The translations under genes and the position numbers were made by a program. A stretch of 39,019 bases of DNA from a virus. The notes under the pieces were generated by a model, which saw only the letters and a program-made list of their open reading frames with translations, was not told where the DNA came from and searched no databases. The DNA lies in the IMG/VR virus record IMGVR_UViG_3300006071_000030; one strand, 5' to 3'. Shown here piece after piece: positions 4,964 through 38,920 of the stretch; the stretch's first letter is position 1; each line of letters opens with the position of its first letter.

Positions 4964-4975
4964 CAATTAGTCTTT

Positions 4976-10412: not shown

Positions 10413-10901
10413 CTACTTGCTAGGCGGATTCGGCGCACCTGTGTTATCAGCGTCATATTCCTCTGATTTATTAACACGGCTTGCTTCTTCTACAGCAGGC
10501 GATTTCTTCATTTTTGTTAAGCCATTTGGCTCTGGGTGAGCAAAATAACGCATTTTCGATGCAAAAGCCCAAACATCATCATCTTCTTGAACGCTGGCAG
10601 TCATCACAGGCTGTTCAGTGTGTGCAGATAAATTATCTGAGTATGGACTACGAAGATCTTTGGTAAGCAAATTCTGCAATGAGAAGTCATAGTTATCTTG
10701 CTTAGCACCACCTGAGTTCATCAGGCAATATCCGTGTGAGTACAGTGGGCGCCTACCATCGACTGCAGTACCGTCCACAAGTACCTTACCCAAACCATCA
10801 GTGAATGATGGCATATCACAGAAACGGCAAGGTACTCCTGCAGGAGCGTCTTTTGGCTCTACGTAGCTTCTTTTACGGTTCATGTTATCCCTCGTCTTCA
10901 T
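10413..10901 (-). CDS. hypothetical protein (162 aa)
   Basis: ORF overlaps the upstream 801-aa gene by 17 nt. Contains a CRFC motif. Confidence 0.5.
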   Translation of the reverse strand: MKTRDNMNRKRSYVEPKDAPAGVPCRFCDMPSFTDGLGKVLVDGTAVDGRRPLYSHGYCLMNSGGAKQDNYDFSLQNLLTKDLRSPYSDNLSAHTEQPVMTASVQEDDDVWAFASKMRYFAHPEPNGLTKMKKSPAVEEASRVNKSEEYDADNTGAPNPPSK

Positions 10902-15739: not shown

Positions 15740-15741
15740 TA

Positions 15742-16524
15742 TTAACTTTCGTCTTCCTCGAGGTCATTAACATCGAACATTCTTTGTACCTTTGCCCCAG
15801 GTATATTAACTGTTGGTGTATTAGATGGTTGGTTACTTGGTGGCGTAGCTTCAGGAACTGTTTGAACCTTACGCTCTCTTCTCTTTGGCGTAGGTGTTTC
15901 ATCGACTGGTGTCGTTGATTCCTCAGAGTTATAACCCTTAACCTTTGACTTCGGCATCTTAATATCATGCTTTGGTGCTTCATCATCGGCAGATAAATAA
16001 GTAACACCTGTAGTTACTGTCTGATATGGTGTTGGTGTTGTAACTGGAGCATCGCTGTCTTGTATACCACGAGTTCTAGAACGTTCTTTGTTCCTAACAA
16101 CTCGTCTCTTCGTTTCGCTCTTCAAGCTACTTACAGCACGCTCAGTCTTGTTAATGTTCCTATTTTCAATGCGTTGATCTGTCTTACCAGATTCGCCTGG
16201 GTTCAGACCAGATGGACGCTGGTTAGCAACAGCATGTTCCATCTCAACGATTTCATTACCAACAAAAAGAGCATGGTTTGCGCATGTGTGAACCTGTGTC
16301 ACTCCAGATGGAGTGTAAATGAATTCACCATCTTTGTTCTCTGCTACGCCACCACGCTCGTAGCTCTTAGCACCTTTTGCTCTAGCTTTCAAAGCTTTCC
16401 TAGAAGAACGCTGGATGCTATCGCACGGGCCCAGAGAATCATATTTCTTCGCTTGTTCTGGAGCTAAGCTATCTCTAAGATCAGCTATGCAGCAACGCTT
16501 TCCCATATTAACATGCGTATCCAT
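15742..16524 (-). CDS. basic Thr/Pro-rich hypothetical protein (260 aa)
   Basis: ORF packed between neighbours with a 1-nt start/stop overlap at 16524. Confidence 0.55.
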   Translation of the reverse strand: MDTHVNMGKRCCIADLRDSLAPEQAKKYDSLGPCDSIQRSSRKALKARAKGAKSYERGGVAENKDGEFIYTPSGVTQVHTCANHALFVGNEIVEMEHAVANQRPSGLNPGESGKTDQRIENRNINKTERAVSSLKSETKRRVVRNKERSRTRGIQDSDAPVTTPTPYQTVTTGVTYLSADDEAPKHDIKMPKSKVKGYNSEESTTPVDETPTPKRRERKVQTVPEATPPSNQPSNTPTVNIPGAKVQRMFDVNDLEEDES

Positions 16525-17753
16525 TATTGATCTCCCTTGCAGCGGTAAGACTCAGCAATAAATTTGTCAACACGGTCAAATTTATTGCCAGGGTAGCTAT
16601 CTGGAAATGGAGCGGTTTTGATTTTAGCGATGCCACTCTTGTAATCATCACTTTGCTTAATCTTGGAGATGTTTTCTGGTGTTTCAAAGCCTCTTCTTTT
16701 TTCACAACCACAAAAGACGTGTGACTCTTGCTTAGTAGGCGTTGAGGGTGTAGACGCAGGAAGCAATGCTTGCTCTTCTCTTTTTTGCCTTATTTGCTTT
16801 ATTTCGTCGAAAGTGTCTTTGAAGGCACCTGCGTAACCAGTACCTTCTTGCTCTCCGCGTCTTACAAGCATCTTATTGATAGATTCAATGTTTTGACGAC
16901 CCTTCATTGCAAGCACTCGGTCTTGACCCTGCACACCGTGTTCGGGGATAGCAATGGTAGTCTTACGTGATGGTTTGCTAGCAGGCACTCTAGAAGTTCC
17001 AGAAGACGCGCTTGAGTCATCGTCTTCAAAGTCTTCTAACTCTGGTACGTGTTCTTCTGGGGTTTCATCAGTGGGAGCAGACTTTGTCTTATTGAACTTC
17101 TTATTGACAGGTGGCAATGCCTGGATAGGAATACCCTTATCTTCTTCCTGATCACCTTCATGTTCTTCTTCGTGAGAAACATTCTCTGGGATTTCTTCTT
17201 CAGCTTCTTCAGCTTCGTGAGGAGATTCTTCTTCTGGGTGTCCAGGAAGCGTTTCAGGATCGTAAGTGAACTTACCTACTTGTTCTTCTTCAGCTTTCTC
17301 TTCATCATTGGGTTCTGTATCAACTTGTTCTGGCTCTTTGTCTTCAGTTGCATCAGACCATTCTTCCTGCTTGCCTTCGTAGTCATCAGGATCGTAATCG
17401 TCGCTAGAAGCGTTGAAAAGCATTTTGAATGTGGCTGTCTTGCCCAAAGATGGCAATGCAATAATATTTGCTTTTTTCAAGAACTCAATAGATTCAGGAG
17501 AATATTTGATCGTGCCAGGCGTTTGGCCCTGCTTATTCAAAATGTCTTTAAGAGCGTCTTCTTCGCTGGTATAAAGCTTTTTAGGCGTTGAAACTGACGT
17601 AGGAGCAGTAGGGTGCTCTGTTCTCTTATATTTTCTAGGCCCTGGTTCTTTTTGCCCTGATTGTGTGTTATCTTTTCTCAAATACCACTCAGGGTCTCCA
17701 TTACTAATGGCACCCGTACCCGAAGAGTACTTAGAATTAAATGTTTTAGCCAT
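16524..17753 (-). CDS. highly acidic low-complexity protein (409 aa); scaffold-like or internal protein
   Basis: Long Glu/Asp-rich stretches (EEEQ, EEESPHEAEEAEEE). Confidence 0.6.
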   Translation of the reverse strand: MAKTFNSKYSSGTGAISNGDPEWYLRKDNTQSGQKEPGPRKYKRTEHPTAPTSVSTPKKLYTSEEDALKDILNKQGQTPGTIKYSPESIEFLKKANIIALPSLGKTATFKMLFNASSDDYDPDDYEGKQEEWSDATEDKEPEQVDTEPNDEEKAEEEQVGKFTYDPETLPGHPEEESPHEAEEAEEEIPENVSHEEEHEGDQEEDKGIPIQALPPVNKKFNKTKSAPTDETPEEHVPELEDFEDDDSSASSGTSRVPASKPSRKTTIAIPEHGVQGQDRVLAMKGRQNIESINKMLVRRGEQEGTGYAGAFKDTFDEIKQIRQKREEQALLPASTPSTPTKQESHVFCGCEKRRGFETPENISKIKQSDDYKSGIAKIKTAPFPDSYPGNKFDRVDKFIAESYRCKGDQ

Positions 17754-18389: not shown

Positions 18390-18481
18390 CGTGTTACTCC
18401 TTATACTGTTCCCTTAGGAACGCTGGACAGTAGGCAATATATGCCTAATACCTGTTATAAGATAGAGCATGTTTTAAATGG

Positions 18482-18562
18482 TCGATGGGGAGAGATTCGA
18501 ACTCCCGTACCCGAAGGATCTGGTTTACAGCCAGACGCGATTGGCCACTCCGCCACCCATCG
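18482..18562 (-). tRNA. tRNA-Tyr (GTA), long variable arm, no encoded CCA
   Basis: Folded by hand: acceptor CGATGGG/CCCATCG, D-arm GCGG/TCGC, anticodon stem TCTGG/CCAGA with loop CTGTAAA, a 12-nt variable arm, and T-arm GGGAG-TTCGAAT-CTCTC. Confidence 0.75.
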
Positions 18563-18567
18563 ATTTG

Positions 18568-18638
18568 CTGAGGGAGAAGGACTCGAACCTTCAACAAAAG
18601 CTCCAAAGGCTCCCGTGTTGCCATTACACCATCCCTCA
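18568..18638 (-). tRNA. tRNA-Gln (TTG)
   Basis: Acceptor TGAGGGA/TCCCTCA, T-arm GAAGG-TTCGAGT-CCTTC, anticodon loop CTTTGGA. The anticodon stem has two G-U pairs. Confidence 0.6.
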
Positions 18639-18660
18639 ATGTTTATTGCATGGCATGCAG

Positions 18661-18747
18661 CGGAATGAGTAGGATTCGAACCTACGGAGGCTTTGATACC
18701 TCGCCGGTTTAGCAAACCGGTGCTTTCGACCACTCAGCCATCATTCC
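18661..18747 (-). tRNA. tRNA-Ser (GCT), long variable arm
   Basis: Acceptor GGAATGA/TCATTCC, anticodon stem CCGGT/ACCGG with loop TTGCTAA, long variable arm, T-arm GTAGG-TTCGAAT-CCTAC. Confidence 0.75.
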
Positions 18748-18752
18748 TTATG

Positions 18753-18824
18753 CTCCCAGGGTAGGGATCGAACCTACGACCGAGCGATTAACAGTCGCTT
18801 GCTCTGCCGCTGAGCTACCTGGGA
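18753..18824 (-). tRNA. tRNA-Asn (GTT)
   Basis: Acceptor TCCCAGG/CCTGGGA, D-arm GCTC/GAGC, anticodon stem AGCGA/TCGCT with loop CTGTTAA, T-arm GTAGG-TTCGATC-CCTAC. Confidence 0.75.
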
Positions 18825-18832
18825 TTGTAAAA

Positions 18833-19192
18833 CTAGTCTCCTTTGACCACTCTGATACTATCATAGTCGAAGTGTTGGGTAGAGAACTCAAATACGCGTG
18901 AATTCTCTAGACCAATGATTCTGTGACGTAAACCGACAGGTACGTGGAAAAGGTCTCCCGCATTAAGCACCTTTTCCTGTGCGAGCTCGATATCGTCTGT
19001 CTCACCGTAAAGTACGATGACCTTACCGTTCTCTACGTAGAAGGTTTCGTCCTTGATGTTGTGATAATGGTAAGAAAGCTTCTTACCCTTATTCATGTGC
19101 AAGATCTTGGCGCAGTACTTCTCAGAGTTACAAAGAATCTCTTCATAACCCCAGCCCTTTTCTACAAATTCCTTATTCAAAGAAGTCATCAC
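18833..19192 (-). CDS. cupin-domain protein (119 aa); candidate sugar(-phosphate) isomerase/epimerase
   Basis: Small cupin core (GWGYEEIL ... HYH ... FYVENG ... HVPVGLRH) with a typical metal-binding His pattern. Sits at the end of the sugar operon. Confidence 0.45.
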   Translation of the reverse strand: MMTSLNKEFVEKGWGYEEILCNSEKYCAKILHMNKGKKLSYHYHNIKDETFYVENGKVIVLYGETDDIELAQEKVLNAGDLFHVPVGLRHRIIGLENSRVFEFSTQHFDYDSIRVVKGD

Positions 19193-19490
19193 TGTTTATT
19201 CCTTTGTCATCGATGTAAAAATCAGCAGAAGGTTTACCCATGATTAGATGATGGTACTTACAACCCCATTGCTTAAGCTGACGCTCCGTAATGTCACGGA
19301 AAAGTATTTCTACAAGCTTTGGGTCATTATTTGTCCTATGCATACCTCGAGCCGTAAAATAAACGACTGTATGACCCTCTGAATAAAGCTTGTTTATCTG
19401 ATCAATACGTTCTTGAACAGGCAGTGCATTTTCATACTTACCATCAGTAAGTGTGCAGATGGTGCCATCAATATCTACAACGTATCTCAT
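19173..19490 (-). CDS. HAD-superfamily phosphatase (GmhB-like heptose bisphosphate phosphatase candidate)
   Basis: HAD motif I VDIDGT, motif II Thr in FTAR, motif III GKP, motif IV YIDDKG. Only 105 aa. Confidence 0.55.
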   Translation of the reverse strand: MRYVVDIDGTICTLTDGKYENALPVQERIDQINKLYSEGHTVVYFTARGMHRTNNDPKLVEILFRDITERQLKQWGCKYHHLIMGKPSADFYIDDKGINSDDFFE

Positions 19491-19876
19491 CGTTCTAAGA
19501 TCCTAGTGGTTGAATAAGGCTCAAGTCTAGTGAAATAATCAATCTTCTTTGCGTACTCTTTACCAGGGAAGTCCTTGCCGAACCAGTCAGCACCAGCAAA
19601 CCAGATATCTGGGGATAAAGCCTTGACGATATTGATCAGTTCTTCATCTGAGTCAAAGAGTAGCGTTTGATCAACATACTTAAAAGCATCAATAACAAAT
19701 TGTCTATCATACTGATTATGGAAAGGTCGATCAGAGCCTTTCTTCTCTTTTACACGCCTATCAGTGTCGATAGCAACAGTTAGGGTGTCACCATGCGATT
19801 TGGCATGTTTTAGAAGTGCTACATGGCCTTTATGAATGACATCAAACGTGCCAGTTAAAAAGATCTTCTTATCCAT
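19487..19876 (-). CDS. cytidylyl/adenylyltransferase-like nucleotidyltransferase (HldC / RfaE domain II-like)
   Basis: N-terminal GTFDVIHKGH (H-x-G-H nucleotidyltransferase motif). 129 aa. Confidence 0.6.
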   Translation of the reverse strand: MDKKIFLTGTFDVIHKGHVALLKHAKSHGDTLTVAIDTDRRVKEKKGSDRPFHNQYDRQFVIDAFKYVDQTLLFDSDEELINIVKALSPDIWFAGADWFGKDFPGKEYAKKIDYFTRLEPYSTTRILER

Positions 19877-20654
19877 TTAGATACTCGTCTACAGTCTTGA
19901 ATTTGTAGTCACCCCACTCTGGCTTAGCACAGGTATACGTCTGATACTTGCCAACCAGGTGTTCTGGGAACGGTACATATTCTATAGCACCGTTATAAAG
20001 GTATGCAACTGACTCAGCAACGTCTTTAAAGCTAATTGGGTTGCTTGTGCCAAGATCATAGATGCCAGAAGGCTTATCGTTGTTGAGAACGATTTCAACA
20101 AGGTCATCAACGCAGACAAAGTCTCTCTTGAAGTTCTCTGAGCCTTCAAACAGCTTTAGAGAGCCTGTCTCTTTAATTTGGGCTGAGAACTTGCTAACAG
20201 GGCTTGCCTGGTCACCTTTACGGCCTTCATAATCACCATATACGTTGAAGTAACGAAAACCTTGGATAAGAGAGAACTTATCCATGTTATCTTGCACCCA
20301 GTAGTCAACTGTCAGCTTTGACATAGCATATTGGTTCTTAGGGTTAGGAATACCCTGCAAATCGCCATAAACGGAAGCAGAAGAAGCATACTTAACAGGG
20401 ATACCAAAAGAGATAGCAATCTCAAAGAGGTCTATCGTGTATTCAACGTTCCAGGCATACAGTTTCTTAACATCCTTTTCAGTAGTGCTGGAGATAGCAC
20501 CCTGGTGCAAAATAAGATCAACTTTATCCCATTCTTTAAAGTTATAAAGGAAGTGATAAGCATCTTCTTTATCAATAGGCAATAAAGGCTTGTTAGAAAG
20601 AACCTTGCTAAAGTTTCTACCAATGAAACCTTCTGAACCAGTCAAAATGATCAT
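19869..20654 (-). CDS. NAD-dependent sugar epimerase, extended SDR (HldD / ADP-L-glycero-D-manno-heptose-6-epimerase-like)
   Basis: N-terminal MIILTGSEGFIGRNF (GxxGxxG Rossmann fold). Catalytic YxxxK in NQYAMSK. Confidence 0.6.
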   Translation of the reverse strand: MIILTGSEGFIGRNFSKVLSNKPLLPIDKEDAYHFLYNFKEWDKVDLILHQGAISSTTEKDVKKLYAWNVEYTIDLFEIAISFGIPVKYASSASVYGDLQGIPNPKNQYAMSKLTVDYWVQDNMDKFSLIQGFRYFNVYGDYEGRKGDQASPVSKFSAQIKETGSLKLFEGSENFKRDFVCVDDLVEIVLNNDKPSGIYDLGTSNPISFKDVAESVAYLYNGAIEYVPFPEHLVGKYQTYTCAKPEWGDYKFKTVDEYLNG

Positions 20655-21379
20655 ATCGTTGTAACCCCTCTATGCTTTACCACTTCAGAAGCGCATTTAT
20701 TAGCATACTCAATGCTTTTGATGATATTGCCGCAATTAGCATACTCAACGACAAGTGCTGCCATGAAAGCATCGCCTGCACCTGAGGAGTCCTTGACTTC
20801 TACCTTGTCAACGTGATAACGGTTACCGTTGTACTCGCAACCATCTCCACCCATCGTATGGATGATCTTCTTCTTGAAAGATTCTGTAACTTTGGGGTCA
20901 GAGTTCTTGTATTCGTAATCGTTGATCTTAATGATGAAAGCCTTTTTGGCCCACTTCCCTAGCTTCTTCTTAGTATCGAGGAATACACGTGGGTGTGACT
21001 TACAAATATCTTTGATGTCGTCTTCTGTTAGATAACCTTTGTTATAGTCAGAAATAACTACAATGTCATATTCGCTGTAATCGATATCGTTTTTAAACCT
21101 ACCATAGTTTGGCTCTGTATCGACTCTAATAAACATGTGGTTAGTTGCTTCATGAACGTATCTTGTCTTAGTAATAGACCGCCAATTATGGTTGGTTCTA
21201 ATGTTGACGTCATCCGCAAACTTTTTGATGTTGTTTAACACGTTCAGTGCCATACCAGGATTCTTTACCTCATGCATGGCGTTTAGCACAGGTACTGGAA
21301 TATCGGGTGCAAGACGCATTGCATCACAATAAACAAATACGTCCATGCAACTTTCACCTATTACTAAAATTTTAGTCAT
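20651..21379 (-). CDS. PfkB-family sugar kinase (HldA / RfaE domain I-like heptose-7-phosphate kinase candidate)
   Basis: C-terminal GAGDAF (the PfkB DxxGAGD signature). N-terminal ILVIGESCMDV glycine-rich motif. Confidence 0.6.
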   Translation of the reverse strand: MTKILVIGESCMDVFVYCDAMRLAPDIPVPVLNAMHEVKNPGMALNVLNNIKKFADDVNIRTNHNWRSITKTRYVHEATNHMFIRVDTEPNYGRFKNDIDYSEYDIVVISDYNKGYLTEDDIKDICKSHPRVFLDTKKKLGKWAKKAFIIKINDYEYKNSDPKVTESFKKKIIHTMGGDGCEYNGNRYHVDKVEVKDSSGAGDAFMAALVVEYANCGNIIKSIEYANKCASEVVKHRGVTTI

Positions 21380-21861
21380 TAGAAAATAGGTAAGCCATCT
21401 TTTTTAAGATAGATCATGGCAGGGGCCTTGATCAAATATGCATCAATCATAGCCTTTTCTGTAGCTTCACGGCTAGTAGGAAAGTAACTTTGTACATTTT
21501 TGAATACCGTAGCTAAGCGTTCAGGGTTGAGCGGACGGTGAGTAGGACCATGCGTTGGATAATCAGAATAACCAACCAACATAACAGGCAAGTTTTGTTC
21601 ATCAATATCAATTTTGACTTGCTCATAAGGTCGTTCGATTACAAAAGGAGTAATTGAATAAACTACTGGACGAAACCCATCGATAGCAAGACCAGCAGCC
21701 AAGCTAGTAATTGATTGCTCAGTGAGACCAAGGTTGAAGAACCGTTCAGGAAACTTTTCTTTGAACTCAGTCATCTCTTGCTCTACGTCGCCTGTAATCA
21801 ATACGATGCGATCATCTTTTTCAGCGAGCTTAACGATTGTCTTACCGAATGCTACTCTCAT
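21379..21861 (-). CDS. transketolase C-terminal subunit (pyrimidine-binding domain only)
   Basis: MRVAFGKTIVKLAEKDDRIVLITGDV ... FFNLGLTEQS matches the N-terminus of transketolase C-terminal subunits. Start taken as ATG 21861, just after the upstream stop (ORF track starts at 21918). Confidence 0.6.
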   Translation of the reverse strand: MRVAFGKTIVKLAEKDDRIVLITGDVEQEMTEFKEKFPERFFNLGLTEQSITSLAAGLAIDGFRPVVYSITPFVIERPYEQVKIDIDEQNLPVMLVGYSDYPTHGPTHRPLNPERLATVFKNVQSYFPTSREATEKAMIDAYLIKAPAMIYLKKDGLPIF

Positions 21862-22610
21862 GCCAGTTCCTCCAATGCTTGCTTTTCTAGGTCTCCACCT
21901 AGCCAATTTGAGTGCCATTTAGGTTGGTTTTCCATAAAGCTTACACCCTTACCCTTGATTGTGTTTGCAACAATCAAAGTAGGAGATACTGCAGCTTCAA
22001 AATTGATGTTGATAAGATCATCGTTGTGACCATCAATTTCATGCACTTCCCAACCAGCAGCTTGTGCAGCAGCAATAAGAGCACGGTCTACGGGCATGAT
22101 TTCGTCAACGTACCCAGAACCCTGGATCTTATTGTTATCTACGATAACAACCAAGTTATTGAGCTTTAGGCGTGCAGCAATAAGAATTGATTCCCAAGTA
22201 GTGCCTTCTTGGCATTCGCCATCACCCATAAGAACAAACACTTTTTCATTTGAGTTGTTGAGCTTACGAGCAAGAGCCATCCCCATAGACACTGGGAAAC
22301 CATGTCCCATGCTACCTGCGGTGCAATAAATGCCATTCTCAGGCTCATAATGAGGGTGACCTTCAAGGGTGGGGTTATAACCTTGTTCACGCAAAAGCAC
22401 ATAGTATGACCAGCAGCTGTGCCCCTTGCTCAAAACAAAACGGTCATTCTTTCCCATGATTTTATCAAAAAGATTGATCAGAATTTCAGTACAACTAAAG
22501 CTACCGCCATAATGATAACCACCATTAGCTTTGCTAATCTCAATAGCATCTCTGCGTACTTGCTTTGATCTTTCGTTTAACATTAATTGGCCTTTCCAGA
22601 TAGATTGCAA
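21858..22610 (-). CDS. transketolase N-terminal subunit (TPP-binding)
   Basis: GGYHYGGSFSCTEIL, KGH, GSMGHGFPVSMGMALA and VLMGDGECQEG are classical TPP-binding motifs. An alternative ATG at 22583 would make a TAATG overlap with the upstream gene. Confidence 0.65.
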   Translation of the reverse strand: MQSIWKGQLMLNERSKQVRRDAIEISKANGGYHYGGSFSCTEILINLFDKIMGKNDRFVLSKGHSCWSYYVLLREQGYNPTLEGHPHYEPENGIYCTAGSMGHGFPVSMGMALARKLNNSNEKVFVLMGDGECQEGTTWESILIAARLKLNNLVVIVDNNKIQGSGYVDEIMPVDRALIAAAQAAGWEVHEIDGHNDDLININFEAAVSPTLIVANTIKGKGVSFMENQPKWHSNWLGGDLEKQALEELA

Positions 22611-23149
22611 ATTAGAATTTTTTTATCTTCATCGTAATCAAACTCACATGCGTTGTCATACTCTTTAATATAGTTAATTAATTTTTGCTTTGTAGTTTCT
22701 TCATCACCAAAATCAAGAGCCATACCACTAGAAGAATCACCAAGCAGATCAATATCATCAATCAGAATAGTGTGAGCTTTGCGAGGGCGAGCAAAGATTA
22801 CGTTTAACTCATCCATCAAAGGAACTGCTGGGTGTTCTACATTCGGGTCACCGCTTGCGCTGTGAGCATCGAGCCAGAAATCTAGCGGGACATCATAAGG
22901 CTCAATCATCTCTGATAATTTTTCTTTTGAGTCGCCTAGAAATAACACTACTCTGTTGTCATTATCAAACTTGCTACAACAATTATCGTAGAAAGATTTA
23001 TTGAACTCAACAGTTATAACCTTTTCATAACCAAGACCAAGTGCTATTTCTACTGTATAGCCATGTTGTGTACCAGTTTCTACAAAGATATTATTTCTCT
23101 TATATTTAGAGAACATCAATGTCATTGCTTCTGTGCTTCTATCTGCCAT
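22583..23149 (-). CDS. class I SAM-dependent methyltransferase (FkbM / sugar O-methyltransferase-like)
   Basis: Motif I FVETGTQHGYTV (VxxGxxxG). 188 aa. Acidic C-terminus. Confidence 0.45.
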   Translation of the reverse strand: MADRSTEAMTLMFSKYKRNNIFVETGTQHGYTVEIALGLGYEKVITVEFNKSFYDNCCSKFDNDNRVVLFLGDSKEKLSEMIEPYDVPLDFWLDAHSASGDPNVEHPAVPLMDELNVIFARPRKAHTILIDDIDLLGDSSSGMALDFGDEETTKQKLINYIKEYDNACEFDYDEDKKILICNLSGKAN

Positions 23150-24159
23150 TATTCCATCTCAATCATTATTCTACCGGCAATGCCGCTTCTAAGTGTATCA
23201 AATGCTTCATTTACTTCGTCAAGTTTATATCTGTGAGTAATGAACTCATCAATATAAAGCTTCCCAGCCTTCTCGAGCTTAACATAACGCAAGATATCGT
23301 TAGAAGGATCTGTCTTGCCACCCTGGGTAGCCTTGATACTAAGACCATTACCATTAAAGAAGCTGAGTGCATTGACGATTTCAAGTGACGTTCCTGGCTT
23401 GGGTTGACCCACAAGAATCATTCGGCCATTGTTAGATAGATAGCCAAAGCTCTTCTTAATAACATCGACGTTTCCAGTCGTATCAATAACAACGTCTACT
23501 TTACCTTCAAACTCTGTTTCTGAAGTGTTGTAAAAGAAGTCAGCACCAGCCATGAATGAAAGGTCGCGCTTGCTTTCATTGTTGTCAATAGCAACAATTG
23601 GGCTAAGGCTACGCATAGCTGCACCTTGGATGAGGTTAAGCCCTACACCACCCGTACCGACAACTGCAACGCTTTCACCAAACTTAAAATCGCACTCATT
23701 GTCGATAATACCTAGTGCGGTAGTCAAACTGCATCCAAGGAGCGCAGCGAGGTCATTAGGGGTCTCTGAAGGGACTGTAGTGAGTCGGTTCTCTGACACG
23801 ATAGCCCACTGAGCAAGAGTATTTACCTTGCCACTACTAAAAGTCTTGTCACCAAGGGTGTACTGAGGAAACGCAGCATCGATACCAGTACCTGGTCGCC
23901 AGTGCATAACAACCTTGTCACCTACTTTAACAGTGGTTACTCCAGGGCCAATGTCTTCTACAATGCCACAACCCTCATGACCCATAAGGTGAGGAAGGAA
24001 CTTGCCATTACCCTTGTTGCCATTGATCTCGTGTAGTTGTGAGCCACAGATACCGCTGACAAGGACACGAACCTGTACTTGACCCACTTGGAGCTCAGTA
24101 AGGCCAACATCTTCAATAGAAAGAGGAGCGTTGAGCTCTTTGAGAACGGCAGCCTTCAT
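23149..24159 (-). CDS. Zn-dependent medium-chain dehydrogenase/reductase (ADH / sugar dehydrogenase)
   Basis: GICGSQLHE and GHEGCGIVEDIG (catalytic Zn site). Rossmann motif VVGTGGVGLNLIQG. Confidence 0.7.
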   Translation of the reverse strand: MKAAVLKELNAPLSIEDVGLTELQVGQVQVRVLVSGICGSQLHEINGNKGNGKFLPHLMGHEGCGIVEDIGPGVTTVKVGDKVVMHWRPGTGIDAAFPQYTLGDKTFSSGKVNTLAQWAIVSENRLTTVPSETPNDLAALLGCSLTTALGIIDNECDFKFGESVAVVGTGGVGLNLIQGAAMRSLSPIVAIDNNESKRDLSFMAGADFFYNTSETEFEGKVDVVIDTTGNVDVIKKSFGYLSNNGRMILVGQPKPGTSLEIVNALSFFNGNGLSIKATQGGKTDPSNDILRYVKLEKAGKLYIDEFITHRYKLDEVNEAFDTLRSGIAGRIMIEME

Positions 24160-25007: not shown

Positions 25008-25009
25008 AG

Positions 25010-25083
25010 CGACCTTGATGGGACTCGAACCCACGACCCCCACCGTGACAGGGTGGTGCTCTAACCAACTGAGCTACAAGGCC
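25010..25083 (-). tRNA. tRNA-Asp (GTC)
   Basis: Acceptor GGCCTTG/CAAGGTC (one G-U pair), D-arm GCTC/GAGC, anticodon stem CCACC/GGTGG with loop CTGTCAC, T-arm GTGGG-TTCGAGT-CCCAT. Confidence 0.7.
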
Positions 25084-28547: not shown

Positions 28548-28778
28548 TTAGTTAGCTTTGTAAGCTACAAGTGCCAAGTTCTTTAGGCACTCTTCTGGGG
28601 TGATCCCATTTACGCTTGATAGTTTATTGATAAACACCATCATAACACCAGCAAGTGAGCTGAAGAGTTGGATGGGATCACTCTCGAGGACCATTTCATA
28701 AGCTAGTTCCTCTTGGCCGCTGATGATTGCTGTCATCAAAGCGACTACGTTGCCAATGTTCTCTGTTACAGAATCCAT
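28548..28778 (-). CDS. small hypothetical protein (76 aa)
   Basis: Start chosen at ATG 28778, giving a TAATG overlap with the Dps-like gene stop. The track start at 28814 would overlap by 37 nt. Confidence 0.4.
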   Translation of the reverse strand: MDSVTENIGNVVALMTAIISGQEELAYEMVLESDPIQLFSSLAGVMMVFINKLSSVNGITPEECLKNLALVAYKAN

Positions 28779-29299
28779 TATGCCTCGGTAGACGCCTTCA
28801 AGAACCAACTCCACTTTTGGTGTTGATCAATGCGTTCAGCAATGAAGTTTGCAATACCTTGCTCGTTATCTTTGTCAGCAAGAACAAAGACCTTTTTAAT
28901 GTGATCAATGTATTCGTTATTCATATCTAAGAATTGCTTAGCAAGATTACGTGCATCATCATCGTTAGAACCTACTTCTTTAATTCTACTAAGTCCAGAC
29001 AATTGGCTCATTACAAAAGGAGCTTTAGCATCAAGCTTTCTGATGTTTTCTGCAATTGGGTCAATGTTTTCGTAGATATCATCTACGATCTCATCAAAGA
29101 ACTTGTGATATTGATAGAAGTCATTACCAACAACATTCCAGTGGAAACCATGAATAGTGTGATAGAGAACGTATGCTTCAGCAAGCATTCTTTTCAGAGC
29201 AGTGACCAAATCACTAACATCTTCTTCATATTCTGGGTTTCTAGTGTCGTCTTCTACTTCTGTTGCACTGACGACTCTAAAGCCATTCCAATTGTCCAT
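28778..29299 (-). CDS. dps: Dps / ferritin-like DNA-binding iron-storage protein
   Basis: LYHTIHGFHWNVVGNDFYQYHKFFDEIVDDIYE matches the Dps ferroxidase-centre signature HWNV.G..F..LHE.FEE.Y. 173 aa, typical Dps length. C-terminal WSWFL resembles Dps FLWFIE. Confidence 0.7.
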   Translation of the reverse strand: MDNWNGFRVVSATEVEDDTRNPEYEEDVSDLVTALKRMLAEAYVLYHTIHGFHWNVVGNDFYQYHKFFDEIVDDIYENIDPIAENIRKLDAKAPFVMSQLSGLSRIKEVGSNDDDARNLAKQFLDMNNEYIDHIKKVFVLADKDNEQGIANFIAERIDQHQKWSWFLKASTEA

Positions 29300-32007: not shown

Positions 32008-33087
32008 TTATTCCCAGCTGGTTGGTTTGTCATTGTTAGTTGAATTGAAACGATCTTCATTCAACAAATCAATTAATCTATTGCTGCTACCAGTGATTGG
32101 TCGAGCTGGCGTTGGGAAGTTAGATATAGTTTGTGGGAAATTAAGCTCAAGGTTAATTCCTGCTCCAGGACCAGATGACCCTTTTTCTGGCGTTTGCTTT
32201 GTAGGCATTGGTTCTTGACCAGTTTCAAGCTTAGTTTTCTGTTGTGGTGGGTTACTAGTCTCTTGCTCACTCTTAGTAGAAGTTTCTTCTTCAAGAGAAG
32301 GTTCTGGCATAGCTTCTGTTTTATCACCAATTGTTTTAGGAGCTGGCTGCCAAGTTGTGGGAGATGGTTGTGGTGTGCTAGGAGGAGTCTTTGATGGCTT
32401 ACCAGGAACAGTGAAAGGTGGAACTGTGATTGGCTTAGTAGGAGCCAATGGGTGAGTCTCGAGAGGCATGATGCTACCAACTACGGGGTTAGCAGGGCTT
32501 GCAAAGCTCTGTCCACCACCAGAATCTGGCGTATTGTTGATATCATTGCTATTGTCGCCATTTTCATTACCGCTTGAGTTGCTACTAGGCAAGTTCTTCA
32601 ATGCATCGCTAAGGCCACCACCTTCTGCACCTGCAGCGGCCTCTCCAGCGCCAGCGACTGCTTCTCCAGCACCAAGAAGCTCTGGGATAGCAAGAAGAGG
32701 ACCAGCAGTCACAATTGTGCTTGCTGTGACCATGCGAAGTTCCTTAGCAGCGAACCCCTTACCAGCTTCTGACTGGTAAACTTGGTTATCTGTCAATGCA
32801 TAAGGAATAACGTTAACAGTTGCGTGCGCTTTGCGCAGCATTTCTGTTGCAATGCCTTGGTTTCGGTATTCTGGCTCGACGTAAACACCATCCATGATGT
32901 AGTTGCCACTAGCTTGCTTTTCAGCAGTGAAATAACCGATTCTTTCGTCTCCAACCATTGCTTCAACAAGAAGACCAGAGAACGTGCCACCAGTCTTGTA
33001 TTGCATTGGGCCAACGTTAGCAACAATTCGAACCTTGTCACCTTGTTCTTCAAGGATCTCATTAAGTCTTGGTGGGATAGTAGCCAT
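32008..33087 (-). CDS. GNAT-family N-acetyltransferase domain fused to a Pro/Thr/Ser-rich linker and a C-terminal region
   Basis: GNAT motif A YRNQGIATEML (R-x-x-G-x-A). C-terminal roughly 200 aa is Pro/Thr/Gln-rich and disordered. Confidence 0.55.
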   Translation of the reverse strand: MATIPPRLNEILEEQGDKVRIVANVGPMQYKTGGTFSGLLVEAMVGDERIGYFTAEKQASGNYIMDGVYVEPEYRNQGIATEMLRKAHATVNVIPYALTDNQVYQSEAGKGFAAKELRMVTASTIVTAGPLLAIPELLGAGEAVAGAGEAAAGAEGGGLSDALKNLPSSNSSGNENGDNSNDINNTPDSGGGQSFASPANPVVGSIMPLETHPLAPTKPITVPPFTVPGKPSKTPPSTPQPSPTTWQPAPKTIGDKTEAMPEPSLEEETSTKSEQETSNPPQQKTKLETGQEPMPTKQTPEKGSSGPGAGINLELNFPQTISNFPTPARPITGSSNRLIDLLNEDRFNSTNNDKPTSWE

Positions 33088-33815
33088 TATAGTTTTCCTA
33101 GGTCAGTAGTGAGGTCTTCAAGGCGCATATCGCCATATTGACCCTTTTCAACAATCTCTGGAGTGATGAGAGCCCAGCTCTCTTCCATGTAGCTTTGCAG
33201 CCATCTCCACGTTACCTTCTGCACTTTACCCCAGGTAATACATTCAGCGTAGTCCTTGTCGTAACCTACGAGGATGACACAGTGGCCACCTTCGATCTGA
33301 TTGTCAGCAGGAGTGCCTGTAAGGTCCCATGGCTGGTTGTCAAGGAATTGCTGCTGGAAGGTGACTGGGAGCTTTACACCAATGTATACAAGCCCATATG
33401 AGGCAATTACGCTACGGAGCTCATCAAGGTCAGCATGGTCAGTAGGGGCGAACGCAGCAAGCTTTGTGTTGAACAAGCCGTTGGTCTGCCAGTACTTTAG
33501 TAGGTCCGCCTCGACCGCTCCAGCATCTTGTCCATTCGTATAATTGAGATAACTTTGCTCGACTTCGGTGTCAGAAGGGAATCCTTCTGTAAGTTGTAAG
33601 AAAGCAGCGTTAGCCATTCTGGCGTGAACAATACCAGCAAAAGTACAATCCCCATATTTATCATTTCCTAACATTCCCCAATTATCTACGTTTGGCACTG
33701 CTACGCTCTCTGGTGCAGCTGGCAACGGGTTGCCCTGATAGAAAGCAAGCATGTGCAACCCAGCAGGGCGCTTAGGATCTAGCTTACCTAATTTACCAAC
33801 AATACGATCAGTCAT
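33087..33815 (-). CDS. papain-like (C1-like) cysteine peptidase candidate
   Basis: Candidate catalytic Cys in KYGDCTFAG and His in EGGHCVILVGYD, about 137 aa apart as in papain, followed by ITWGKV. ATG at 33815 immediately follows the upstream stop. Confidence 0.4.
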   Translation of the reverse strand: MTDRIVGKLGKLDPKRPAGLHMLAFYQGNPLPAAPESVAVPNVDNWGMLGNDKYGDCTFAGIVHARMANAAFLQLTEGFPSDTEVEQSYLNYTNGQDAGAVEADLLKYWQTNGLFNTKLAAFAPTDHADLDELRSVIASYGLVYIGVKLPVTFQQQFLDNQPWDLTGTPADNQIEGGHCVILVGYDKDYAECITWGKVQKVTWRWLQSYMEESWALITPEIVEKGQYGDMRLEDLTTDLGKL

Positions 33816-33817
33816 TA

Positions 33818-34186
33818 TTATCTCCCATAAACATCTTTCCATTGACTAAAAGTCAAACCAGTTTTGCCTGCAAGGAACGAGTGAGTGTTGCAATATGGCC
33901 TTGGCACTGAAGAATCAGACCAATGCATGTATTTTGCTTCGTACTTCTTACCTTGGCAGTCGCCATGAGCACATGCAGCCATACCCTTGCGGTCTACGTA
34001 AGGTGCTTTCCTAGTTTTCTTAGGAGGCTCTGGCTGTGGGTTCTCTGCTAAGTACTTCTGCGTGTTCTCGCAATCGGTAGTGTCTTTGCACCTACCGCTG
34101 CTAACGATTGTGTGGGTGCCATCATCTGATGCACCACAGAGCTGACATTGGTCAGGACGAGCAGCGTAACGTTCTGACCAAGACAT
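33818..34186 (-). CDS. Cys-rich hypothetical protein; member of the N-terminal W-x-x-RYAA motif family
   Basis: Begins MSWSERYAAR. Contains CQLCGA, CKDTTDC, CAHGDC. TAATG overlap with the upstream gene. Confidence 0.55.
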   Translation of the reverse strand: MSWSERYAARPDQCQLCGASDDGTHTIVSSGRCKDTTDCENTQKYLAENPQPEPPKKTRKAPYVDRKGMAACAHGDCQGKKYEAKYMHWSDSSVPRPYCNTHSFLAGKTGLTFSQWKDVYGR

Positions 34187-34641
34187 TAGAAGTATTTCTG
34201 TCGTTCTGACGGAGTCATCTTGCCTGATTTTGCTACAGCAGCATCGTGGCTCAGCGGTGTTGGGTTGGGGTTATGACGTCCATTGACTATTGTTTCTCCA
34301 ACTGATCTAAGCAAGCTATAGTGATTGGGAATAACATTTTTGTTGAGAGCGTCAATCGCTTCATCATGTGTAGCTAGCAGTCTGGGCTCTAAAGCTTCTG
34401 GGCCACCAAGCCATGGATCATTGCGTGCACGTGCACTAACATATAAACTGATATTGTGACCCTGGGTATAGGCATGCATCATTTCGTCTTCGGTAATACC
34501 GTGTCGCCTAGCATCATCAACATGCTTCTTTTGAATAAGCTTGGGGTTGCCTGAGTTGGCGTGATCAATCAGCTTCTCAAAGTAGTGTGGATCACCATAA
34601 CCAAAGGTATCTTCAGCTGCGTATCTTCTTTTCCAATTCAT
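34186..34641 (-). CDS. hypothetical protein; member of the N-terminal W-x-x-RYAA motif family
   Basis: Internal Met gives MNWKRRYAAED. TAATG overlap with the upstream stop at 34641. The ORF track extends to 34662. Confidence 0.5.
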   Translation of the reverse strand: MNWKRRYAAEDTFGYGDPHYFEKLIDHANSGNPKLIQKKHVDDARRHGITEDEMMHAYTQGHNISLYVSARARNDPWLGGPEALEPRLLATHDEAIDALNKNVIPNHYSLLRSVGETIVNGRHNPNPTPLSHDAAVAKSGKMTPSERQKYF

Positions 34642-34832
34642 TAATCTTCTCCAAGGATCCAATCGGCTACTTCTTTACTGCGTGAGTGTTCTTGTCCAAT
34701 AGATGGCCCTTCTTGTCTACTCAGTTCAGAAATAATGTGTTTTTCTGCTTCAGTAGTGTTAGGGCATTGCAGTTTAGGCCAGCCATGGCATGAACAGCTT
34801 TCTGCTGCGTATCTTTTAGACCAATTACTCAT
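34641..34832 (-). CDS. small hypothetical protein (63 aa); member of the N-terminal W-x-x-RYAA motif family
   Basis: Begins MSNWSKRYAAE, followed by SCSCHG...C. Confidence 0.45.
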   Translation of the reverse strand: MSNWSKRYAAESCSCHGWPKLQCPNTTEAEKHIISELSRQEGPSIGQEHSRSKEVADWILGED

Positions 34833-35251
34833 TTGATGAGTCCTCTCACGTATTTTGCTGCCTCAAAGTCACTGTAAGCTGTGACGTGTTTGCCACCATG
34901 ACCTCTGTGGTGGAAAAGGCATAGCCATTCCAGGTTTGTTGCGCTCTCTACCCATGCACCAACGGTGTCTGGGTCGCTAACGCCGGGGTAATCGACTTCG
35001 AGCCACTTAAGATCGACGCCATTCTGCAATGAGAACTCAATATGAGTGTGGTGAAGCTCCAAAGGGTGCTCAGAGTCGCACTCACTGAAGTCATTGCGGT
35101 GTTCACCGATAGCACATTTAGCTGTTGCCTTCGTTTTCTCACGGAAATGGTGAAAATCGACGTAATGTGGGTCATCTTCACGCTCTGGGTGAGGTGGATA
35201 GTGAACGGTGTAATGATGAGTGATGTTCTGGTCGTGTTCTTCGACGGTCAT
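34829..35251 (-). CDS. His-rich protein with HNH-endonuclease-like motif
   Basis: LELHHTHIEF ... NG ... NLEWLCLFHHRGHGGKH fits the HNH pattern HH-x(n)-N-x(n)-NL..LC...H. Includes CAIGEH and C..SEH. Confidence 0.4.
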   Translation of the reverse strand: MTVEEHDQNITHHYTVHYPPHPEREDDPHYVDFHHFREKTKATAKCAIGEHRNDFSECDSEHPLELHHTHIEFSLQNGVDLKWLEVDYPGVSDPDTVGAWVESATNLEWLCLFHHRGHGGKHVTAYSDFEAAKYVRGLIK

Positions 35252-35643
35252 TAGTCTTTTTCCCTTCTATCTTGCTGAAGGTAGTCAATAACTTCGTCTA
35301 AACTGCCAAAAACGCGTATATCATCTTCATATTCGTCGTTATCTAGGTCAAAATCGTCTTCATCTGACGAAAAAAGCTCTTCCATGATCATCTGGAAAGC
35401 AGAAAAGGTGATTTCTCTTGAATATTCTACAAAAACACCGTCATGCTGACAGTATTCACTTACGTTAATACGATAAGTGTGGTCTTCATCGTCATCTTTT
35501 GGCTTATCGATGGAGAAATCATCTGAAAGAGAGGAAATCTGGGCAATACTCTCCTTAAACCGGGAGACATATGCACTTTTCTCTGTAGTATCACTGTACT
35601 TTGCTATGTTCTTGCAAGTTTCACAGTCACAGTTGTTTGACAT
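35251..35643 (-). CDS. strongly acidic small protein (130 aa, about 28% Asp+Glu)
   Basis: First gene after a near-consensus sigma70 promoter. AAGGA Shine-Dalgarno. Sequence DDDEDH...SSDEDDFDLDNDEYEDD. Confidence 0.6.
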   Translation of the reverse strand: MSNNCDCETCKNIAKYSDTTEKSAYVSRFKESIAQISSLSDDFSIDKPKDDDEDHTYRINVSEYCQHDGVFVEYSREITFSAFQMIMEELFSSDEDDFDLDNDEYEDDIRVFGSLDEVIDYLQQDRREKD

Positions 35644-35715: not shown

Positions 35716-36831
35716 TTATTCGCCAGAGTAGCTATCATCAGCGTGAACAGCTCTATTTATAGCTGTTGAAGGACTGTAAAGGTGAGAAACACCCTCTCCA
35801 CCTCTCGCACGATGACGTACTCTTGGTGCAACTACAGCTGCATGGTTGTCTTCGTCCTGTCTAAAGTTGACATGGTGGTTGATAATGGTCTGTTCAGCCT
35901 TCGTACCATACAAAACACGGTGGTGTGAACGTCTTCCGACCTTACCAAACTCTCCAGCTTCCTTAGAAACGGGGAAACCAGCGAAATAAGCGGCTCTAAT
36001 CTTGGGATCTTGAGTTCTTTTGGCTGCTTCTTCGTGGTGTTGCATGTCCCAAAGCTGGTTTGTGGGGTGAGTACTGTCATTTACAACGCAGTATGGGCAG
36101 AAACACTTAACAAAACGGGCAGTTTTACCCTGATCGATGACATTTTGCTCAACAGGATCGATAGCATCGTGCGTATTGCACATGTTATTGATGGTGTGGT
36201 TGAATGCGTGGTGCACTGCAAGGTCACCATGGGTGTGATCACTGACAGTTTTCATGGCATCTCGGTAGAACTTAGGGTCCTTGATGCCATTACGCTTACC
36301 CTCGTTGAATGCCATGATCGTTTCAATGTGCGATTGGCCCAAAGCTGAGAGTGGGTGGACCATCAAACGCTCACCAGTCTTTGCATTCACGTGTTCACCG
36401 GCACGGAAAGCACGATCATCCAGGTGGCCCTCTTCGCTGGGAGCAATCATCATAGTAGGTTGATGGATACCCTGCTCGAGCTTGTAAGGCTTACCAGTGG
36501 TCTTGTTGCGAACAGCAACGGTCATGTAGTCACTTGCGGTTTTAACGTTGGCAAGCTGCGAGTGAGCGCGACTGTGATACCAGTCGCCCTTTTTGCTTTG
36601 CTTCAAGCCAAACAAACGCACTGCGTCAGGATTGGGCTCTTCGCCCTCACCAAGGCTACCTATGTAGTGATTAGCGGCTTTCTCAGCAGCATGAGGCACA
36701 TGATAGTACTCAGGGTCTTCCTTGTGGGTGGCGTAGCCAGTACCCTCTTGGAAGATAAGCGTCATAGCGTTGGCAGGTCCGCCAGTCTTGAATTGCTTAT
36801 CGTGTTTTGCAGCTTCTCTGCTGTTGAACAT
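35716..36831 (-). CDS. His-rich hypothetical protein (371 aa)
   Basis: Long ORF. Many HxxH/HH motifs and a CFCPYC motif. Confidence 0.6.
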   Translation of the reverse strand: MFNSREAAKHDKQFKTGGPANAMTLIFQEGTGYATHKEDPEYYHVPHAAEKAANHYIGSLGEGEEPNPDAVRLFGLKQSKKGDWYHSRAHSQLANVKTASDYMTVAVRNKTTGKPYKLEQGIHQPTMMIAPSEEGHLDDRAFRAGEHVNAKTGERLMVHPLSALGQSHIETIMAFNEGKRNGIKDPKFYRDAMKTVSDHTHGDLAVHHAFNHTINNMCNTHDAIDPVEQNVIDQGKTARFVKCFCPYCVVNDSTHPTNQLWDMQHHEEAAKRTQDPKIRAAYFAGFPVSKEAGEFGKVGRRSHHRVLYGTKAEQTIINHHVNFRQDEDNHAAVVAPRVRHRARGGEGVSHLYSPSTAINRAVHADDSYSGE

Positions 36832-36937: not shown

Positions 36938-37603
36938 TTAGCAACCACCACGGCAAATCCATCCAGTACCGTATTCTTGACTTGGGTCCCAAACAATGTC
37001 TTGGGTGTTTCCACAGTTGTAGCAGTAGCGAGAATTGCCTGGGATGTGCCCATCCATAGGCTTATTTTCCCCCATTGAGTTATCGTTGGCGTAACGCTCA
37101 GCGAAAGAAGCACTCTTAGGCTTAAGTGGTGGCACATCGCGAACGTGCTTGTAGACTTGTGGGTCGTACTTAGTGTCTGGGTCTTGCATCATTTTCACTC
37201 TTGAATTAAGAGGAACGTTAGGATTTGTTACTTCTTTGCTAATGTTTGTCTGAGGAGCCTTGCTCTTTGTGCTTGTCTGCTCTGTGGGGAAATGCTTTTC
37301 CATAAGATCACTATAGTGTTCCACAAGGCTCTTTTGGTTAACGCCTGGTTGTGTGCGCTTCAGTACTTCTTGGTGCATCTCATTAATTTTGCCAACGCCT
37401 TGCTGGAACTTCCCAATGCTGTCCATAACGTCATTGTGGTTATTACGGACTTCATCAACCATTCTTGCATTAGGGACGTTAGGCTTGTTCTTTTCGTATT
37501 CATCACGCGTTTGGTATCTATTCTCAGCGATTCTAATCGCCGCCATTTTTGCATTGCCAAGTGAGTTCTGGTAGCTCTTTGACCAGTCGTTGAATTGTGC
37601 CAT
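36938..37603 (-). CDS. hypothetical protein (221 aa) with C-terminal zinc ribbon; first gene of the leftward gene block
   Basis: MAQFNDWSKSYQ... ; CYNCG...WICRGGC. A non-coding region lies upstream. Confidence 0.55.
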   Translation of the reverse strand: MAQFNDWSKSYQNSLGNAKMAAIRIAENRYQTRDEYEKNKPNVPNARMVDEVRNNHNDVMDSIGKFQQGVGKINEMHQEVLKRTQPGVNQKSLVEHYSDLMEKHFPTEQTSTKSKAPQTNISKEVTNPNVPLNSRVKMMQDPDTKYDPQVYKHVRDVPPLKPKSASFAERYANDNSMGENKPMDGHIPGNSRYCYNCGNTQDIVWDPSQEYGTGWICRGGC

Positions 37604-38424: not shown

Positions 38425-38472
38425 AACTAAACCAGTCCTGAGGAGGACACTATGAAGGAAGTAACAACGATC
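38425..38472 (+). repeat. 48-bp direct repeat copy 1 (RBS + ATG + first 7 codons)
   Basis: aactaaaccagtcctgaggaggacactatgaaggaagtaacaacgatc, identical to 38873..38920. Confidence 0.9.
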
Positions 38473-38820
38473 GACGCTGCTAAGGCTTTGGTTGAGCACT
38501 ACGCTGCTGCGGCTGAGCTCATGACTGCTGAGGCTAAGGCTGAGTACGAGGCTGCTTTGGCTGCGTACGAGGCTGTTGAGGCTAAGTACGAGGCTAAGCA
38601 GGACGCTGCTTGGGCTAAGCGTGACGCTGCTAAGGCTGAGTACTACGCTGCTCAGGCTGAGTTCAAGGCTGCCGAGGCTGAGTTCGACGATGCTTGGGCT
38701 GAGTACCACGCTGCTTTGGCTAAGTACGACGCTGCTTTGTCTAAGCCTGAGGTCAAGGCTGCTTGGGCTAAGTTCTACGCTGCTATGGCTGAGCTCAACG
38801 CTGCTCAGGCTGAGCAGTAA
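38452..38820 (+). CDS. Ala-rich (about 40% Ala) helical repeat protein with periodic aromatic residues
   Basis: GAGGAGG Shine-Dalgarno 7 nt upstream. The sequence is built from degenerate GCT-GAG/GCT-AAG codon repeats. The N-terminus MKEVTTI is shared with the next gene. Confidence 0.6.
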   Translation: MKEVTTIDAAKALVEHYAAAAELMTAEAKAEYEAALAAYEAVEAKYEAKQDAAWAKRDAAKAEYYAAQAEFKAAEAEFDDAWAEYHAALAKYDAALSKPEVKAAWAKFYAAMAELNAAQAEQ

Positions 38821-38872: not shown

Positions 38873-38920
38873 AACTAAACCAGTCCTGAGGAGGACACTA
38901 TGAAGGAAGTAACAACGATC
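38873..38920 (+). repeat. 48-bp direct repeat copy 2
   Basis: Identical 48-mer. Flanking bases differ. Confidence 0.9.

Follow-up and report, generated by a model that had tools for sequence, protein, structure and literature searches.

The window analysed here is a stretch of 39,019 nucleotides (nt) of viral DNA (IMG/VR record IMGVR_UViG_3300006071_000030). Three adjacent genes in it, termed P1, P2 and P3, code for proteins with a common start of about ten residues (MSNWSKRYAAE, MNWKRRYAAE and MSWSERYAAR) and with different bodies. This N-terminus, henceforth the tag, is maintained by selection on the amino acids rather than on the DNA, and it is independent of the fold behind it. Hypervariable slots hold the tagged genes as tightly packed cassettes, which are gained, lost, fused and re-tagged through recombination inside the tag-coding DNA. 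By analogy to the capsid-targeting sequence (CTS) of phage T4 we tentatively propose that the ten residues are a modular address tag on many unrelated accessory proteins, which would dock them to the prohead core for loading into the capsid. We assign a probability of about 40% to this reading. The preliminary description of the window missed that the tag is clade-wide (at least 54 families), that the genes can be exchanged as cassettes of a hypervariable slot and that the tag DNA is a recombination junction.

A peptide tag in front of unrelated bodies

P1 (34641..34832, 63 amino acids (aa), small Cys/His-rich body), P2 (34186..34641, 151 aa, helical-repeat body) and P3 (33818..34186, 122 aa, Cys-rich body) are open reading frames (ORFs) on the minus strand, as are almost all genes of the window. 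The tag is encoded by codons 1-11 of P1 (34800..34832, a copy of a 27-nt direct repeat) and by codons 1-10 of P2 (34612..34641) and P3 (34157..34186). Starts, coordinates and lengths were exactly as given in the preliminary description, and the P1/P2 and P2/P3 junctions are, as reported there, TAATG one-base overlaps of stop and start codons. An upstream 140-aa gene overlaps P1 by ATGA, and the next ATG follows 2 nt after P3. The internal ATG at 34641, from which P2 had been read, is in use: JGI and ENA independently called the 151-aa product on identical contigs, and orthologues begin at the equivalent Met right after the stop of the 140-aa gene, where an upstream extension is impossible. A protein identical to P1 was present in 29 blocks of the contig collection, and the gene layout was unchanged in the 23 contigs that were read. 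Promoter-like sites were not more frequent than in shuffled sequence; terminator-like sites were about twice as frequent (14 vs 7.2), none of them between the three tagged genes.

In a six-frame translation of the window W..RYAA occurred exactly three times, always at residue 3-4 after the ATGs of P1-P3. The degenerate DNA pattern TGGNNNNNNMGNTAYGCNGC had 3 matches compared to 0.00 expected from 100 shuffles. A weaker echo of the motif had been suspected in the 221-aa first gene of the block at 36938..37603 (minus strand). It is real: the gene starts MAQFNDWSKSYQ and its orthologues keep the variant, e.g. MPTFNDDNWSKSYNN in locus L003.

A search of other phages for the same N-terminus yielded at least 143 distinct tagged proteins in contigs of related uncultured phages. 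Homologues of P2 and P3, two each in a word-indexed search, were all within the same phage clade (the P2 orthologue P0002 has 75% identity). Contigs with P2 or P3 orthologues (L001-L008) hold further genes with the same start, e.g. for a 192-aa protein (MNWSRRYASE), a 72-aa protein (MSWNNRYVQD) and a 214-aa protein that contains ..MNWVVRYALQ. We fetched 80 loci from IMG/VR via the conserved 140-aa neighbour gene and scanned the tag pattern ATGAAYTGGAAYNNNMGNTAYGC over IMG/VR and the metagenome collection. To exclude chance matches, a locus was kept only if it had two or more tagged ORFs. Lone matches in high-GC metagenome contigs, which were chance or unrelated N-termini, were removed by this rule. 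The 79 loci retained contained 143 distinct tagged proteins. These were of 43-514 aa (median 128 aa) and, once stripped of their tags, fell into 54 BLASTP families (E <= 1e-3). Tandem arrays reach eight tagged genes in 10.6 kb (L224).

The family-weighted consensus of the tag was M (87%), N (84%), W (95%), N (70%), any residue, R (96%), Y (100%), A (82%), any residue, and E (46%) or D (22%). Past position 10 no conservation was observed. The motif is bound to protein starts: in six-frame translations of 89 related sequences, i.e. 88 fetched loci and the window's own region, 48 of the 69 distinct W..RY[AIVSN] contexts were located 2-3 codons after a start codon (45 ATG, 3 GTG). When a stricter pattern was scanned over GTDB, with one genome per bacterial or archaeal species, two matches were obtained; by our calculation a 38-bit pattern should match about four times by chance in 596 Gb. 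Therefore, the tag belongs to phages and not to host genomes. Bacterial look-alike starts, MNWNDRYA[VT][DE].[YF].[YF]GT and MNWNRRYAI[KR]SYLLST (high-GC matches including L127, L181, L189 and L196), were treated as chance; the former resembles the usual N-terminus of some S-adenosylmethionine-dependent methyltransferases. Text searches of the literature retrieved no description of the motif, and no tag member was found in cultured phages.

Codon choice within the tag was free. Asn was encoded by AAC (19) and AAT (15), Tyr by TAC (26) and TAT (18), Ala by GCT (17), GCA (9), GCC (8) and GCG (1), and Arg by AGA (20), CGT (12), CGC (7), CGA (4) and CGG (1). Within the window itself the P3 tag has CGT and GCT, the P1 and P2 tags have AGA and GCA. 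The DNA 5' of the tag ATG was not conserved, and Rfam gave no match. A DNA or RNA element, be it a repeat, a regulatory RNA or a recombination site, was rejected because neither synonymous sites nor flanks are conserved, even though the tag DNA does serve as a recombination junction.

Downstream of the tag the divergence noted earlier was borne out: the bodies of P1-P3 are without detectable mutual similarity, and family scans with P1, P2 and P3 gave no Pfam or PHROG match. P1 has 3 Cys residues, P2 none and P3 has 7; the body of P3 probably binds zinc. When 42 family representatives were aligned, only W, R and Y were conserved. Matches of tagged proteins to Pfam, PHROG and NCBIfam were single and heterogeneous. 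They comprised Cupin_2, a DnaJ-type zinc finger, zinc ribbons, ParB/Srx-like and HTH/HNH-associated domains as well as phrog_2859, phrog_3684 and phrog_2579. All matches that were examined started past the tag, at residue 9 to 70, and often covered an internal part of a longer profile. Thus, the shared N-terminus does not belong to a globular domain common to these proteins. Free codon variation together with domains that always follow the motif demonstrated a modular peptide tag under protein-level selection. The preliminary description had considered a targeting or interaction tag, including a secretion signal. Of this, the shared modular peptide in place of a common fold stood, whereas the polar tag, with no hydrophobic region behind it, speaks against secretion.

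P2 has a body built from a helical repeat of about 32 residues (ATHDEAIDA..G..L..Y..AR; full HMMER search) that is uncharacterised and has no Pfam family. It is present 8-12 times in large untagged proteins that start MAWY... and also in the tagged proteins P0005 and P0009. Up to 12 matched stretches of this repeat type (..ATH[DN]EA[IM]DA..G..L..Y..AR..) occur in proteins of 376 to 1419 aa (P0006, P0007, P0008, P0010, P0013), and a single stretch is in one 5421-aa protein. The AlphaFold2 model of P2 had a mean predicted local distance difference test score (pLDDT) of 50.7, with less than 50 in the tag region, and was therefore uninformative on the tag.

Cassette exchange through tag-coding DNA

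P1-P3 occupy a slot which is bordered upstream by the 140-aa gene (34829..35251, minus strand), HNH-like by a weak PHROG match, and downstream by a 242-aa papain-fold (C1-like) cysteine protease (33087..33815, minus strand; phrog_19005). Among related phages the slot measured from 0 to about 2.1 kb and held 0-5 genes. It is empty (0 bp) in L009-L012, contains one gene, the P3 orthologue, in L001, two genes in L003, three in this window, four in L040 and five in L042. In L249 it is filled by a single 483-aa fusion with three tag copies (P0009; 1102-2553). A close relative of the window has the layout 140/152/124/242, i.e. it is without P1. The packing is tight: of 162 distinct tagged starts 50 overlapped the upstream stop by ATGA and 24 by one base, and 46 were within 15 nt after it.

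A comparison of the window with L003 located the junctions. The DNAs are near-identical to the end of the 140-aa gene and through the first tag (ATGAGTAATTGGTCTA[A/G]AAGATACGCAGCAGAA). They diverge directly after it, past codon 11 of P1 versus the L003 P2 orthologue, and homology returns after the window's second tag. The inserted unit therefore consists of one body and one tag. Its bounds are the tag DNAs of P1 and P2, which form a 27-nt direct repeat with 81% identity and 188-nt spacing. The gene right after the 140-aa gene starts MSNW regardless of the body that follows, which is P1 in the window, P2 in L003 and P3 in L001. Bodies also changed tags. The P1 body recurs in L144 behind a different tag, and P3 orthologues start MSNWAQRYANR in L001 and MNWNERYAATR in L016. 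In L015 and L017 an in-frame fusion places the P3 body behind another domain. Where two or three cassettes are joined in frame, the internal tags are retained (L015-L017, L223, L003 and P0009; coordinates, besides those of L249, are 6420-7619 in L016, 6420-7751 in L017 and 10459-11037 in L003). In L144 a 22-residue remnant of one cassette is fused ahead of the next tag.

The border genes are conserved. The HNH-like gene has 119 relatives in IMG/VR, the best 80 at 65-84% identity, and the protease has 222 homologues. The AlphaFold2 model of the protease had a pLDDT of 88, and Foldseek placed xylellain first (E = 6.7e-9), followed by Legionella Lpg2622 and cathepsins. An assignment to the C39 leader peptidases or to endolysin-type hydrolases was rejected since Foldseek puts the fold with papain/C1; the match to Pfam C39_2 had just 14 bits (E = 0.07). 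A papain/C1-fold protease is unusual for a phage. Sequence searches of the PDB with this protease, with the HNH-like gene and with the head protease described below gave no match. Smaller phage contigs also encode protease homologues (about 37% identity) next to the same HNH-like gene and near membrane proteins; in the stretches fetched from these contigs we detected no tagged gene. Therefore, the pair is not dedicated to the tag.

Proposed capsid loading and alternative roles of the tag

The left end of the window reaches into the head module. A head maturation protease is encoded at 843..1502 (minus strand; phrog_18299 at 4.4e-25, no Pfam match); on L250 it is called with 219 aa. There, beyond the window's left end, the protease is accompanied by a Cys/Lys-rich 237-aa protein and a very acidic 486-aa scaffold-like protein, and the order continues with a decoration protein and a 336-aa capsid protein. 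In the window the portal gene is at 2582..4966 (phrog_2833).

A variant of the tag, M-x(0-5)-F-N-S-[KR]-x-A-[AS], is present on large orphan Cys/His-rich proteins of 371-818 aa. Within the window F-N-S-[KR]-x-A-[AS] is situated within a few residues of the start in proteins of 371 aa (35716..36831, MFNSREAAK), 409 aa (16524..17753) and 801 aa (10885..13290), and in their relatives; the match is weaker in the 818-aa protein (13283..15739). All four genes are on the minus strand. The latter three, which span 10885..17753, are upstream of the head module, and an untagged 260-aa gene (16524..15742) is located between those for the 409-aa and 818-aa proteins. The 801-aa and 818-aa proteins are not paralogues. 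The variant also occurs in L001, L003, L013, L015, L016, L040, L101 and L112. Its spacing equals that of W-N-x-R-Y-A, a hybrid form (MKRTFNSRYAHG) exists, and MSVKFNSRHQSWTQRYSKD has both motifs; W-to-F variants of the small-gene tag, such as MNFNERYAKEK, were also observed. Of 57 distinct FN[SK][KR] contexts 21 were within 8 residues of an ATG. The three large proteins encoded upstream of the head module had no match in PHROG, Pfam or cultured phages, tblastn included.

In the proposed mechanism the tag would dock all its bearers onto one common partner, most likely the scaffolding core of the assembling prohead. Tagged cargo would be packaged and then delivered with the DNA, as with the CTS of T4. 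In members with an A-x-E tag end this could be the cleavage site of the prohead protease. If the tag is a capsid-targeting propeptide, the head maturation protease is a candidate enzyme for its removal. The presence of this protease and of the acidic 486-aa scaffold-like protein is consistent with the analogy, as is the position of the FNS[KR]-tagged orphans directly upstream of the head genes.

Capsid loading was ranked first because of the likeness to the CTS of T4 and the A-X-E cleavage in phage SPN3US. In T4 the internal proteins (IPs) IPI, IPII and IPIII and Alt carry the CTS, MKTYQEFIAE. As with the tag, an N-terminal peptide of about ten residues alone is common to unrelated small proteins, and the IP locus of T-even phages varies between related phages as the tagged genes do. 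In the clade the T4-type format, a ten-residue consensus with nothing conserved after it, heads 54 families, and the slot with its 0-5 genes in up to about 2.1 kb is the counterpart of the polymorphic locus. In T4 the CTS is a propeptide of 10-19 residues and the sole feature common to diverse internal proteins; residues 4 and 7 are for targeting and 8 and 10 for cleavage, yet Asp at position 10 still targets (PMC9026906, PMC3012670). The tag similarly has aromatic residues inside and, in members with Glu10, an x-E ending at positions 8-10 (PMC9026906, PMC3012670). The cleavage motif is L/I-x-E in T4 and A-x-E in SPN3US, a giant phage which cleaves head-protein propeptides at A-X-E (PMC7411985). 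The A8-x-E10 ending, present in about half of the families, would fit the latter (Ala8 in 82%, Glu10 in 46% and Asp10 in 22% of families; A-A-E in P1 and P2, A-A-R in P3). Like in SPN3US and phiKZ, large orphans, here with a related tag, adjoin the head genes. However, the SPN3US propeptides are long (111-130 residues in the quoted examples) and do not share a short motif, and no homology was detected between tagged proteins and the ejection or inner-body proteins of these phages.

Two further systems are of similar design. In encapsulins a short terminal peptide suffices to send diverse cargo inside an HK97-fold shell, which is putative here. Cargo-loading peptides of encapsulins are usually C-terminal and have a different consensus, and the present case is a genuine phage that has a portal, a tail and DNA packaging. 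Polymorphic toxin cassettes likewise diversify through recombination where a conserved N-terminal part meets a variable body (PMC3482391). In those systems a complete trafficking domain is conserved instead of ten residues, and each toxin has an immunity gene; no pairing of toxin and immunity genes was seen here.

Several points weigh against capsid loading. The presence of tagged proteins in virions and their cleavage are predicted by analogy. Position 10 is Glu in less than half of the families, and in P3 it is Arg. The tag has no sequence similarity to the CTS, only the general format is alike, and the phage is not T4-like, as its portal has 39% identity to that of Bixzunavirus. AlphaFold2 gives the tag no confident structure. 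None of the head proteins on L250 (protease, scaffold-like, decoration and capsid protein) carries the tag, some cargo domains (HTH/HNH-associated, ParB-like) have no obvious need for packaging, and the conserved papain-fold protease beside the slot is another possible partner. Membership in the T4 system is not claimed because sequence similarity and a T4-like lineage are absent, Glu10 is not universal and virion presence is a prediction. Compared with T4 the lineage is a different one with a Bixzunavirus-like portal, and the repertoire is far larger: it comprises at least 54 families, as many as 8 genes per 10 kb and proteins of up to 514 aa. The tag is unusual both in scale and in phage lineage.

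Possibly, though this is rather doubtful, the tag is a universal loading signal which defines the full set of proteins that this clade packs into the capsid and injects with its DNA. The loading set would then comprise more than 50 cargo families, exchanged as cassettes and readable directly from sequence. The system would match that of T4 in kind but be much larger and of independent evolutionary origin, and it would directly provide a handle by which foreign proteins could be loaded into a new type of capsid. With capsid loading as such, the T4 strategy would have arisen independently, and on a larger scale, in an actinophage-like lineage. In uncultured phages nearly every accessory gene is an orphan that lacks annotation; the tag would unite more than 50 families in one functional class, mark hypervariable exchange loci and offer a way to pick candidates for injected or co-targeted effectors, e.g. 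anti-defence proteins. Even with another partner the tag defines a new phage interaction hub, which may be fished with a ten-residue peptide.

Such a partner outside the virion is the foremost alternative, although we consider it unlikely. The tag would be a short linear motif for one common non-virion protein, without any packaging. The partner might be a host factor, such as a protease adaptor for which the tag is a timing degron, or a phage chaperone or regulator, for which the conserved acidic 130-aa protein encoded two genes upstream (35251..35643) is a candidate. Protein-level selection and modularity apply equally to this explanation, and the Met-Asn start, conserved to 84-87%, suggests that a free N-terminus is read. 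Yet nothing indicates a specific partner, and the internal tags retained in fusions are awkward for a free-N-terminus motif. The tag is absent from bacterial genomes, with GTDB matches at chance level, so there is no signal of host mimicry.

It is improbable that the tag is a recognition or cleavage site of the adjacent papain-fold protease, which would remove it or release fused cassette domains. Papain-type enzymes prefer a bulky hydrophobic residue at P2, which Tyr7-Ala8 would suit, multi-cassette fusion proteins do occur, and this neighbour, confidently of C1-like fold, borders the slot in most members of the clade. On the other hand, the protease is retained where the slot is empty (L009-L012), some tagged genes are tens of kb away from it, and its homologues beside the HNH-like gene are in contigs in which the fetched stretches revealed no tagged gene.

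Very little speaks for a motif kept solely as a DNA homology patch for cassette exchange, with a functionless peptide. Insertion junctions and tag swaps do fall in tag-coding DNA. However, synonymous positions are free, with both AGA and CGN in use for Arg, at amino acids that are conserved to 82-100%. This explanation is largely refuted because the codon pattern is the opposite of what a DNA-level element predicts.

Finally, three diverged paralogues with the surviving start of a common domain, or as a variant a classical secretion signal, can practically be dismissed: the tandem arrangement and the CxC or CxxC motifs which a few bodies share just after the tag are outweighed by 54 unrelated families, by different known domains that all start past the tag and by a P2 repeat that is present in untagged proteins, and the polar tag is without a hydrophobic core or a consistent twin arginine. 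A Sec, Tat or lipoprotein signal was rejected as only 7 of the 143 proteins had a 16-of-19 hydrophobic window; an Arg-Arg pair is present in a minority of tags only. Also rejected was a leader of a bacteriocin or a ribosomally synthesized and post-translationally modified peptide with a C39 peptidase: there is no GG motif, the cargo is of 43-514 aa and includes globular domains, and no transporter was seen.

Other genes of the window

The portal shares no more than 39-40% identity with its counterparts in Mycobacterium Bixzunavirus myoviruses, and a DNA search with the 4.7-kb region around the tagged genes gave no match among cultured phages. Therefore, the window comes from a large phage that is uncultured. 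JGI and ENA metagenome assemblies repeatedly contain contigs that are identical or near-identical to it, with lengths of up to 50-200 kb. The window also codes for a 1054-aa virion protein and for five tRNA genes (Tyr-GTA, Gln-TTG, Ser-GCT, Asn-GTT and Asp-GTC; 18479..18824 and 25009..25083, minus strand), four of which are clustered just upstream of the large FNSK-tagged genes. A block of sugar- or nucleotide-metabolism-like genes (19173..24159, minus strand) includes a zinc alcohol-dehydrogenase-family protein (phrog_2640) and a nucleotide-sugar epimerase (phrog_540); it may have a role in surface or DNA sugar modification.

A Dps/ferritin-like protein (28778..29299, minus strand; also L001 9775-10275, L003 15248-15748 and L004 15079-15594) has its own conserved N-terminal extension, M-[DSE]-x-W-N-G-F-R-V-V, followed by an acidic linker. 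Its start, MDNWNGFRVV, resembles the tag; it was rejected as a member since it is a distinct, orthologue-specific N-terminus. A GNAT acetyltransferase (32008..33087, minus strand) has a long Pro/Ser/Thr-rich tail that ends in ..TSWE. Its relatives (L004 11762-12727) and a 149-aa protein (L001 7000-7449) end in ..TTWE and ..STWE, which may represent a conserved C-terminal motif. The sole clear candidate for a plus-strand gene near the tagged block is an ORF of 122 aa (38452..38820) with Ala/Glu/Tyr/Lys-rich repeats (..AEYEAALAAYEA..). It is bracketed by two identical hairpins with a T-rich tail (GTCCTCCTCAGGAC TGGTTTAGTT) at 38435..38448 and 38883..38896 (minus strand).

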